Part shown: positions 5,354-10,132 of the stretch, piece by piece
Numbering within the stretch: the stretch's first letter is position 1
Layout: each line of letters begins with the position of its first letter
Source of the DNA: an uncultured archaeon
Lineage (GTDB): Archaea > Thermoplasmatota > Penumbrarchaeia > JASLWR01
Direction: 5' to 3'
DNA: 50,698 nucleotides
NCBI GenBank assembly: GCA_964342815.1
Contig: CAYFHS010000024.1
Coordinates: 1-50,698, forward strand
Program-made: the position numbers and the translations under genes
Notes under the pieces: generated by a model
Seen by the model: the letters and a program-made list of their open reading frames with translations, nothing else
Database searches by the model: none
What the model was told of the DNA's origin: nothing

Positions 5354-5761
5354 TTAATCGTCAATCACTTCAGCATATTCCTTTTCCTCTGAATCATCTT
5401 TTTCGACCAGTCTAATAACATCGGTTCGACTATTTTTTACAGTCTTATTATAATTATGGATATATGCGAATCCTCGAAAAAGCATGAAAGCCAATCCCAT
5501 TAACATTACTGGAATAAAACATATAGTGAAATAGTTTTTTACAAAAGGAATGAATGGAAGTAAGATAAAAATAATACCGAGTACAACCATATCAATCCCT
5601 GCATTTTTATTTACAGGATACCATAGCTCTTCGTTATCAAGTGTTGATCGGGTTCTGAATCCATATAACGGATTGGGTGGTATTAACTTAAAAATAAAGG
5701 GTATTCCTAGAACAAAAAATATAATCCCAACTGTAACTGAGGTCAAAGCAGAATAAACCAT
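5354..5761 (-). CDS. SdpI/YhfL-family membrane protein
   Basis: IPPNPLYGFRT..TL.NEELW..VNK.AG motif; three hydrophobic segments. Confidence 0.8.
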   Translation of the reverse strand: MVYSALTSVTVGIIFFVLGIPFIFKLIPPNPLYGFRTRSTLDNEELWYPVNKNAGIDMVVLGIIFILLPFIPFVKNYFTICFIPVMLMGLAFMLFRGFAYIHNYNKTVKNSRTDVIRLVEKDDSEEKEYAEVIDD

Positions 5762-7843: not shown

Positions 7844-8065
7844 ATGAGATTGGCGAGAGCAGAAAGATTTATGAGAAGAACTTGTTCTAGAGAAAGACTT
7901 ATAATGTTGTTCATTAATTGGCTTCATATGACAGATGAAGGATTCGATTTCGCGTTGGATGCTTTGATCCGAAATGGTGTTGTAATTCAAATACCCGATT
8001 CTGAGGAAAGACTTGCATATTATGTCAATCCTCGGTTCAATTCTTTTAAGGTTTGTAATAATTAA
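7844..8065 (+). CDS. Small hypothetical protein, possibly a degraded winged-helix gene
   Basis: FDFALDALIRNGVV...YYVNP resembles a wHTH helix and wing; the 5' end is uncertain. Confidence 0.3.
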   Translation: MRLARAERFMRRTCSRERLIMLFINWLHMTDEGFDFALDALIRNGVVIQIPDSEERLAYYVNPRFNSFKVCNN

Positions 8066-8105
8066 TGTCATGGATGATTCGCTAATGCAAAGGAGGGTGA
8101 AGAAA

Positions 8106-8393
8106 ATGGCAAATGTAAATTACGATGAAGGAACAATTCAATTAGCCAATGACTGGTATGCCGCAGAAGGATTAAAAAATAAGATCGCTGATATGCTTGC
8201 TTCTGGTAATTATAAGATAAGCAACTATGCCACTGCGCTGGAAGAATTGGATGGAAAGATGGAGGGATCCGAATCTATATCTGCAGTTTTGACTGCAAAG
8301 ATATTGGATGGGTTGAAAAAGATCAGTTCAAAATCTTCCAAAAGTATGGGTGACTGTATCAGAGAAGCTTTAACCATATACTTACGCCCTTGA
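8106..8393 (+). CDS. Protein with a C-terminal ribbon-helix-helix (CopG-like) domain
   Basis: SD GGAGGGTG before the ATG at 8106; ISAVLTAKILDGLKKIS...SMGDCIREALTIYL fits the RHH pattern. Confidence 0.65.
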   Translation: MANVNYDEGTIQLANDWYAAEGLKNKIADMLASGNYKISNYATALEELDGKMEGSESISAVLTAKILDGLKKISSKSSKSMGDCIREALTIYLRP

Positions 8394-8654
8394 AATATCC
8401 TTGCGTGGGGCATCCGATCAATGCAACTATGATGCTTCGAAGACGATCTTTCTCAATATCATGTTCTATCAAAGGATGGACTTACTTGAAATGAAGATGG
8501 AATTTTGCAGGAGGGTTTTCGAAAAGAACAAGTTCTAGTTGCTTCGTCCGGGTTTAATTTACATCTCTATATGTTTCAAAAACAAACGACTTAATCAAAC
8601 ATATAGCTTTTCGTTTCAATTTTTAAAGACCTATTACTAAAAGATCAAGAACAG

Positions 8655-8990
8655 AAGGCTTTACTTGAAAAGTCGGGTACTACTCCGGCTTGAAAGTGTG
8701 ACACGCCAAGGGGTGTGTCTTCACTTGTAAAGACGGGAACAAAGTGACTGTCTTCTTGGTAAAGTTGAGCCAGAATGGGTCGGCTTTACACGTAAAGTCA
8801 TCACTTGACAAGGCTTGAACGGAAATGCCCGGTCAAGTGCGATCTACCCCGATGCTATCGGTGGGTACATCTACATTGGTGAGCCAGGATGGGTCACCTT
8901 AACCGGGGCCCCAATTCACGCTATAATCGGGCATTGTAGATATGGCACACTAAATCAAATTCCAAGCCATCGCTTGAAAAGAAAGCGCTT
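8655..8990 (+). ncRNA. Candidate structured non-coding RNA or structured ssDNA element; family unknown, strand inferred
   Basis: At least seven hairpins, two with the same apical motif on different stems; TATA-like TTTTAAAG near 8621. Confidence 0.5.
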
Positions 8991-8993
8991 CAG

Positions 8994-9203
8994 TTATCCC
9001 TCGTACTTGAAGGATAGCTTTATTCGAGCCCGAAACGAAACGATTTTGTTGTCAATGATCTTTGTGTCAAGTTTTTCAACTTCACAAATTCGGATATCTC
9101 GAAGGGTTTCTGCAGCCTTGGATACCGCATTGCTTACGGCCTCTTCCCAGCTGTTTTCCGACGAGCCAACAAGCTCTATTACCTTATAAATGCTTTCAGT
9201 CAT
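8994..9203 (-). CDS. Dodecin (flavin-binding)
   Basis: YKVIELVGSSENSWEEAVSNAV.KA..TLR...KLSFK is the dodecin signature; 69 aa. Confidence 0.92.
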   Translation of the reverse strand: MTESIYKVIELVGSSENSWEEAVSNAVSKAAETLRDIRICEVEKLDTKIIDNKIVSFRARIKLSFKYEG

Positions 9204-9514
9204 GTTATATCACCTCTGAGTTATCAATATAAGAAGGATATATAATAAATTGTTGGTATCATATTGTCAAATGGGCGAACCTTGACAGAATGAATCGTGA
9301 ATTGGAAAATTCACTTCAACCGACATAACATGAATTTCAATTTCTAGGCTCTGTGATGGCCTATATTGGGCCTCTGGGAACCGGGTAAAGTTTTGGTAGA
9401 ACAGAATACATTTTTGGTTCACTCTATCAGTAATTGCTCGTTTCAGATACTGCGGGAGAATTGAAACGAGATTGGAATGATTATATAGAATGAAGACGGA
9501 TACAATGGAATAAT

Positions 9515-10132
9515 ATGGAAACAGAAGACAAGTATTATCGGGCACCATTGGGTGCTGGAACACTGATTATCACGATATTTGCTATAATATTAATATCATT
9601 CACAATATATTTGACTCTGGCAACTGCTACTTATATTGCAGCATTTTATACACCTATAATAATTTTGATTCTTCTTATTTCATATCTACCAGTTCCAGAT
9701 GGATATTACCTAAGTAAAGAAGGAATTGTAATCTCTCGAAGAATCCATGATATATCAATCCCTTATGATACTATATCTGATATCGAGTATAAGCATAACA
9801 GAATTCTTTTTAGTTTTTTTTCAGTTGGGAATAGAGGTTGGTTTGGCTGGGCTTGCAGTGCTTACTATATTAGATATGGGTGGGTAAAGATCTACAGCAG
9901 GAAGATATCAAATATCGTGCTCATCTATACGAAATCGGGGGGGAACTATGCTCTTGCACCAGAGAATCCGGAAGATTTCGTGAGCGATATCAAATCAAAG
10001 ATTAAAATAACTGGAAAAGACCACTATCGCGATTTAAGCGTTGAGCAAAGGATTGAAGGAGAAATGAGATATCTTGGGTTTATAGAAGAAAAGAAAGAAG
10101 AACCAGAATTCGCTGAAGTAATTGATTTTTAA
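9515..10132 (+). CDS. Membrane protein with a bacterial PH-like domain
   Basis: Two N-terminal TMs, then IPYDTISDI..GNRGWFGWAC.Y...YGWVKIY......VLI.T...NYALAPENPEDF. Confidence 0.65.
   Translation: METEDKYYRAPLGAGTLIITIFAIILISFTIYLTLATATYIAAFYTPIIILILLISYLPVPDGYYLSKEGIVISRRIHDISIPYDTISDIEYKHNRILFSFFSVGNRGWFGWACSAYYIRYGWVKIYSRKISNIVLIYTKSGGNYALAPENPEDFVSDIKSKIKITGKDHYRDLSVEQRIEGEMRYLGFIEEKKEEPEFAEVIDF

Follow-up and report, generated by a model that had tools for sequence, protein, structure and literature searches.

A mosaic cluster of modular hairpin repeats, probably a REP/BIME/BOX/PATE-like non-autonomous element, in a marine archaeal lineage

Positions 8657-8904 of the window (the whole 50,698-nt stretch of DNA analysed here) probably represent a mosaic cluster of lineage-restricted, modular, non-coding hairpin repeats, that is, a non-autonomous element similar to REP, BIME, BOX and PATE. 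The repeat family behaves like selfish insertable DNA and not like a dedicated single-copy RNA gene. An earlier note had described 8655-8990 as an unassigned single element. This initial reading is partly confirmed: the hairpins are real, but the segment is not a unique gene, as 8657-8904 is repeat DNA and 8905-8990 is unique. The window corresponds to C24:1-50698 of its own genome (G000), which is 88.9% complete. An archaellin match (PF01917) near the segment indicates that the host is an archaeon, and DNA of the window was found in marine and seawater metagenomes. For a census of the repeats in G000, we used BLAST with 8600-9000 as the query, an iterated nhmmer profile and a covariance model of the 65-nt unit (CM R1). 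With this model we also scanned a congener (G001), a member of another genus of the same family (G003), G002 and 57 further genomes of the class and phylum. The segment and its edges contain the following features:

8608-8628 (+): T-rich tract that includes TTTTTAAAG; unique DNA, 30-50 nt before the repeat edge
8657-8664 (+): left repeat edge; only the 3' arm (GGCTTTAC) of a B-type hairpin is present, without a 5' partner; at 8659, the BLAST copy number goes up from 1 to 4-9
8670-8691 (+): hairpin module C (AAGTCGGG / TCCGGCTT) with CTTGAAA(A)G linkers on either side; MFE -8.6 kcal/mol; 6-8 genome copies
8694-8726 (+): hairpin module D, with outer stem AAGTG/CACTT and inner hairpin 8700-8719 (GACACGCC/GGTGTGTC); ~8 copies
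8727-8791 (+): canonical 65-nt unit; nhmmer E = 6.6e-19 (model 1-65); CM R1 89.1 bits; 36-68 BLAST matches per base
8730-8754 (+): hairpin A' of the canonical unit, with a 7-bp stem and an 11-nt GAAC...GA loop
8759-8789 (+): hairpin B1 of the canonical unit, with a GTAAAG...CTTTAC stem, a G.G mismatch and a CC-AGAAU-GG apex
8792-8903 (+): composite B2-frame module with GTAAAG (8792) and CTTAAC (8898-8903) as borders; 77% identity over 115 nt to C9:93146-93260
8904-8959 (no strand): unique spacer outside the repeat family, which holds 8926-8941; copy number 1
8960-8993 (-): region at the 3' end of dodecin with a terminator-like hairpin (8979-8960), a T-rich tail and the third CTTGAAA

Per-base copy number in G000, as counted by BLAST, was 1 up to 8658, 4-9 at 8659-8718 and 36-68 at 8719-8800. 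It was 2 at 8801-8876 and ~6 at 8877-8903, and returned to 1 from 8905 on. Modules C and D together with the following unit are 92% identical over 142 nt to C19:5872-6013, and comparison with C19:5700-6300 showed that the C19 copy carries a full upstream module, unlike the orphan arm at 8657-8664. The inner hairpin of module D has a folding energy of -11.9 kcal/mol, and both helices of the module are present in the MFE fold. Inside the B2-frame module lie the hairpins 8802-8839, 8845-8867 and B2 (8878-8898). Hairpin B2 (GGTGAGCC-AGGAT-GGGTCACC) alone has ~12 copies, on both strands, on C30, C11, C16, C6, C4, C43 and C18, and it also occurs in the congener. Because the window copy is a mosaic and not a regular array, Tandem Repeats Finder detected no array in 8400-9200.

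All seven hairpins listed in the earlier note are able to form, with MFEs of -3.8 to -15.9 kcal/mol. The two hairpins with the shared GAGCC-AGRAT-GGGTC apex and G.G mismatch are located at 8759-8789 and 8878-8898, and their lower stems differ as described. The pair is thus real, but the so-called twin covarying hairpins represent separate subfamilies, B1 and B2, of hairpin B. By contrast, the proposed two tandem modules, with a CACTT...AAGTG hairpin before each twin, do not hold up, because the weak hairpin at 8721-8747 (CACTT/AAGTG, -3.8 kcal/mol) is in competition with hairpin A at 8730-8754 (-8.4 kcal/mol), which is conserved in the family, and most other copies lack the 5' arm of the weak hairpin. 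The hairpin at 8802-8839 is real and is part of a different module. The reported recurrence of CTTGAAA holds for the copies that flank module C; the third copy, at 8973, lies outside the repeat in the terminator-like hairpin of dodecin. Segment 8928-8941 had also been proposed to form pseudoknots with upstream segments. However, this pairing is at chance level, as the duplex energy between 8906-8960 and 8800-8905 was equalled or bettered by 17.6% of 500 shuffles, and it is absent from the sole homologue of that part, C9:93146-93260. That 8926-8941 can pair with several upstream segments reflects the presence of ATCTAC in two copies.

We next asked how these observations bear on a single novel two-domain structured ncRNA gene, transcribed from a TATA-like box near 8621. 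When 8640-8990 (351 nt) was folded on both strands and compared with 100 dinucleotide-preserving shuffles, the + strand (-124.8 kcal/mol) was clearly more stable than the shuffled sequences (z = -5.0), and the - strand gave z = -2.7. Besides this fold, the lack of an Rfam match and of a credible ORF, as well as the TTTTTAAAG motif ~35 nt upstream of the first module, would fit such a gene. A cmscan search found no SRP, RNase P, riboswitch, ribozyme or other family in the segment. With Rfam 15 at gathering thresholds, the tRNA at 2568-2642 was the sole match in the whole window; at E <= 10, 8400-9250 yielded no match below E = 4, and all three matches were outside 8655-8990. The ORFs 8815-9189 (+) and 8680-8811 (-) have no Pfam match above the curated cut-off. 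Nonetheless, the modules that make up 8657-8904 are present 2 to ~60 times at other places, where they are combined differently, 8905-8990 is unique DNA, part of which belongs to the dodecin 3' end, and the long-range pairing between the supposed domains is at chance level and not conserved. In addition, the upstream flanks of other arrays have no promoter-like motif in common, and the TTTTTAAAG tract near 8621 could just as well be the oligo-T terminator of ORF 8013-8393 as a TATA-like box. Instead of a new two-domain ncRNA (a tandem aptamer or a protein scaffold), as had been proposed, the segment is a mosaic whose modules are found ~80 times across the genome. The copy census has therefore already largely refuted a single ncRNA gene, which we consider extremely improbable. 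Apart from the segment, the window holds a separate tandem array at 2354-2577 (period ~62 nt), which runs into the tRNA at 2568-2642. Its units each end in a copy of the tRNA's first bases (GGGCCTGTAG), and the family is distinct from the 65-nt repeat.

The cluster occupies a 600-nt spacer between convergent genes, a small ORF at 8013-8393 (+) without a Pfam family above the cut-off and dodecin at 8997-9203 (-; PF07311, E = 4.6e-25). A suggested link to dodecin is coincidental, as the neighbours of other copies are unrelated. Several further observations concern the surroundings of the cluster. A paralogous copy of ORF 8013-8393 (7900-8394, 79% identical) is present at C6:146866-147360, with weaker ones on C27. 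Each of G001-G003 has 3-4 homologues of this ORF, and the stop codon marks the exact end of the similarity. Just upstream of the dodecin start, 9238-9365 contains another short dispersed repeat (~60-85 nt, 76-93% identical), which has at least 8 copies on C27, C14, C4, C79, C10, C42, C5 and C13; contigs from other runs break at 9285 and 9318. The SdpI-like protein (5354-5761, -) and the bPH-domain protein (9515-10132, +) are unrelated small membrane proteins with nearly the same acidic tails (..EYAEVIDD / ..EFAEVIDF), which may be a shared C-terminal sorting or recognition motif.

The census in G000 yielded 82 matches with BLAST (query 8600-9000), 81 with nhmmer, at 45 places, and 77 with CM R1. 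The covariance model also detected 66 matches in G003 and 7 weak but structurally convincing ones in the congener, and none in G002 and the 57 further genomes of the class and phylum. When a genome-contig collection was scanned for exact patterns, the only matches came from a single other archaeal MAG and, by chance, from Lachnospiraceae records. In metagenome contigs, the same type of scan gave two matches, both within an unrelated bacterial coding sequence; viral contigs gave none, and BLAST against plasmids and phages found nothing. In G000, many copies form head-to-tail runs of exactly 65-nt period, for example at C17:65374-65568, C3:22871-23132, C6:49737-49931 and C54:1-174, whereas inverted neighbours were found only at C9:93016-93143 and C11:87793-87923. 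Array length and composition vary freely. About 17 of the places are at contig ends, which is the usual sign of a repeat that breaks assemblies, and in four further metagenome runs from marine or seawater samples, the summed contig depth of 8692-8859 exceeded that of the flanks roughly 10-30-fold. A CRISPR array was considered and rejected: the whole 65-nt period is conserved between units, leaving no unique spacers.

Each 65-nt unit contains two hairpins. Hairpin A has a stem of 7-8 bp (AAGTCAG/CTGACTT or the variant AAGACGG/CYGTCTT) and an 11-nt loop that starts with GAAC and ends with GA. In hairpin B, a 10-bp stem (GTAAAG-TTGA/TCGG-CTTTAC) is topped by a mismatch of purines, usually G.G, followed by two C-G pairs and the loop AGAAU. 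To examine conservation of this structure, we aligned 30 distinct units from G000 and a second genome (alignment A1). Standard pairing was found in 90.5% of cells for the 20 proposed pairs, compared with 22-46% after a shift of the 3' partner by 1-3 columns, and GTAAAG is paired with CTTTAC in 28-29 of the 30 units. Five pairs are changed on both sides (31 cells), and the covariation score was attained by 0 of 500 shuffles, a statistic that overstates independence because the units are related copies. Compensatory switches were seen both between subfamilies (T-A/A-T at columns 7-27 and A-U/U-A at columns 45-57) and between genomes (G-C to U-A at columns 41-61). Compensatory changes thus support hairpin A as well as hairpin B. 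Between genera, the stems covary, and the loops and apices hardly vary in sequence. Moreover, the top strand folds more stably than the bottom strand in 29 of 32 units under RNA parameters and in all 32 under DNA parameters, a one-strand preference that results from the U.G pairs in hairpin B.

Other hairpin modules are joined to the units via CTTG/AAAG-type linkers, and the B frame is interrupted by structured inserts in at least 13 places, always at the same point beside the AGAAU loop. These inserts fall into classes of ~58 nt (C2:218227, C3:68497), ~75 nt (seven places) and ~160 nt (C20, C14, C18, C13), the last of which adds two more two-hairpin inserts to the 58-nt form. A short direct repeat (GTGCC, TTGCTGC or CGGGTG) borders every insert. 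The inserts may be nested insertions, or the short unit may be a deletion derivative of a longer form.

Strand-specific folding, in which U.G pairs become A.C on the other strand, together with near-invariant loops and apices on covarying stems between genera, might indicate that the host retains the repeats mainly as functional RNA or RNA-level elements and that their spread is secondary. They would then act, for example, as 3'-UTR stabilisers, terminator-like hairpin stacks or sites for RNA-binding proteins (at the CC-AGAAU-GG apex or the GAAC...GA loop). In line with this, many copies lie 5-30 nt past the stop codon of a co-oriented gene, and the conserved loop and apex and the one-strand folding fit selection on RNA equally well. 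However, such features are also typical of hairpins that are recognised on single-stranded DNA. The copies are all intergenic, and the gene on their 5' side is co-oriented in only 17 cases and opposite in 11; several arrays (C14, C20, C32 and C1:148204) are antisense to both neighbours. Furthermore, the freely variable length and composition of the arrays and the absence of the family from G002 and 57 other relatives argue against a host-kept role, which we regard as unlikely. A dedicated RNA function is not needed to explain the segment. As a separate observation, many arrays adjoin very large ORFs of 1,247-3,132 aa (for example, at C3:22871, C4:150392, C13:86276, C16:36636 and C9:69), which may simply mirror the share of such genes in the genome.

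Insertion of the repeats as DNA is suggested by occupied and empty sites. The solitary unit at C18:26691-26755 has a paralogous site at C69:1648|1649, where exactly these 65 nt are missing, without any duplication of bases. This empty site is a single pair between diverged paralogues, which share a stretch of ~430 nt with flanks that are 75% and 88% identical, and the C69 site may represent a precise deletion instead of an insertion on C18. The insertion point (..CCTGTCA^GGACAAG..) is just 5' of the 3' arm of a small local palindrome. C69 itself (4175 nt) is built around four copies of a ~140-nt repeat that is also present on C14, C2, C65 and C42, and its first 55 nt are identical to the end of C14. 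Occupancy also differs between genomes: a unit of G003 (L010:1506-1569) lies in a ~300-nt spacer between two genes, and the G000 orthologues of this gene pair (76% identical; C6:51269-52555 and 52606-53883) are ~50 nt apart without a unit. For none of the G003 loci examined did G000 have a unit at the orthologous position. A preference for the element's own junction as a target is not clearly supported when flanks that are other modules are set aside. Among 12 unique 5' flanks at other copies, only ~3 end in CA.

For the window cluster, whose left end is a truncated module, we found no empty-site counterpart. Dodecin was not found in G001-G003 with the window query, and the homologues of ORF 8013-8393 in the relatives have different downstream neighbours, which explains why no orthologous empty site was found for this locus. 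Among four other marine runs, the junctions between flank and repeat (8491-8688 and 8867-9029) are present in one, which belongs to the same study as the probable source sample, and no contig joins the flanks across the element.

Two subterminal-type hairpins that fold on one strand, precise insertion without target duplication in one case and head-to-tail arrays, which are expected if an element's own end recreates its target, are also features of non-autonomous IS200/IS605-type (PATE-like) elements. The segment could accordingly be the ends or the guide RNA of such an element, or of an IscB or IS110 element, with the cognate TnpA/TnpB encoded elsewhere. The proposal of the earlier note that the segment comprises IS200/IS605-like ends thus agrees with the small non-coding two-hairpin unit, its one-strand fold and the TSD-free insertion, but not with the survey of transposase genes. 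No match to PF01797 (Y1), PF07282 (TnpB), PF04986 (Y2) or PF00078 (RT) was obtained in G000, although at 88.9% completeness this does not prove the absence of a mobilising gene. The Y1, TnpB and RT searches were positive in control genomes; the Y2 search was positive in 0 of 14 controls but has matches in the congener. The earlier note had suggested a check of whether homologues flank tnpA, tnpB, iscB or IS110 genes. There is no transposase within ~4 kb of the segment, where the genes are SdpI-like, fn3-like, dodecin, bPH, HHH and archaellin, and CM R1 found no unit beside the Y1 genes that are present in G001 and G003. The IS200-type tnpA of G003 has end hairpins of its own (CCAGTG..CACTGG type) that are unrelated to the family, and the segment has no Rfam match to HEARO/omega-type RNAs. 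We therefore consider this origin very unlikely. 

Regarding the G003 gene itself, this sole IS200-type tnpA is bracketed by similar hairpins (ACGCCAG..CTTTAGG..CTGG) at 1250-1300 and 1975-2005 of L036 (G003:C1), and resembles an intact IS200 that has no relation to the repeat family. A search for an autonomous copy, with B arms 0.3-5 kb apart, gave only loose chance matches, such as C30:20172 inside a coding sequence. Further candidates were rejected. A TnpB/IscB omega-RNA or an IS110 bridge RNA was dismissed on the basis of the neighbours, which are the small ORF without a family above the cut-off, dodecin, and membrane and PH-domain proteins. An IS91-type rolling-circle element, prompted by the CTTG motifs, lacks a Y2 transposase in G000, and a retroelement lacks an RT there. 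An integron attC-like site is contradicted by the order of GTAAAG/CTTTAC, which is inverted relative to R''/R', and by the lack of cassette ORFs.

The mosaic cluster of selfish hairpin repeats is thus the reading that we favour. The elements would spread as DNA via an enzyme acting in trans that recognises the hairpins on one strand, in a mode similar to the use of RAYT by REP/REPIN and of IS200/IS605 TnpA by PATEs. Arrays might grow by insertion beside existing copies or by unequal exchange between copies. A copy that lies within a transcript would fold as RNA and may incidentally affect 3'-end stability. It is also possible, if doubtful, that an unrecognised kind of protein moves or uses the family, or that the arrays are processed into small RNAs with a host function. 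The idea of an unrecognised mover derives from ~80 near-identical copies without Y1, Y2, TnpB or RT, from their precise TSD-free landing and from the structured cargo at the edge of the hairpin loop. If true, it would point to a single-strand, hairpin-guided insertion system in marine archaea.

Among known repeats, BOX (Streptococcus pneumoniae), ERIC, Correia and MIRU are modular intergenic repeats with few module types, one of which is reiterated in variable tandem number. BOX and similar repeats are strongly folded when transcribed and have no transposase of their own. The archaeal family is likewise modular, tandemly reiterated and strongly folded, without its own transposase. Unlike BOX, it shows no sequence relation, carries structured inserts nested in one hairpin and is confined to one archaeal family.

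REP units are short (20-40 bp), extragenic palindromes of high copy number (PMC3733652). The hairpins described here are 25-31 nt long, with 77 covariance-model matches, all between ORFs. As in REP, BIME and REPIN, short imperfect palindromes in tens to hundreds of copies are extragenic and often just downstream of genes, occur as singletons and mosaic clusters with a patchy distribution among close relatives, and form subfamilies with compensatory stem changes and G-T pairs, suggesting that one strand folds (PMC3733652, PMC3116915, PMC2817692). However, GTAG/CGTC-tagged REPs have their terminal tetranucleotide at one end, outside base pairing, and REP dimers are dominated by the HH and TT forms, HT being rare (PMC3733652). 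Here, GTAAAG is base-paired inside the stem and is not a free tag, head-to-tail arrays dominate instead of inverted dimers, and two different hairpins are combined in a fixed unit. In bacterial REPIN-RAYT systems, a Y1 (RAYT) transposase gene is present in the same genome and typically has the repeats on its flanks. Here, the host is an archaeon, and no RAYT/Y1 gene was found in its genome. PATEs are archaeal non-coding elements, bounded by hairpins and inserted without TSD, whose ends are common to resident IS1341/IS200-type genes (PMC3119063). The present family is also a hairpin-bounded archaeal non-coding element with TSD-free insertion (one case), but no tnpA/tnpB was found in G000 and the tnpA ends of the relative are unrelated. 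The paired GTAAAG, the head-to-tail arrays and the lack of RAYT and of tnpA/tnpB thus place the family outside both REP/REPIN and PATE.

For annotation, the segment and ~45 similar places should be masked as repeat DNA and not called as ncRNA genes. The family also explains many of the contig breaks in the assembly, and its arrays should serve as VNTR-like strain markers for this marine lineage. The repeats are not accompanied by a recognisable transposase. Overall, the family would represent an archaeal counterpart of bacterial REP, BIME and BOX elements with an unusual grammar: a fixed two-hairpin unit, head-to-tail arrays and hairpin-nested cargo.
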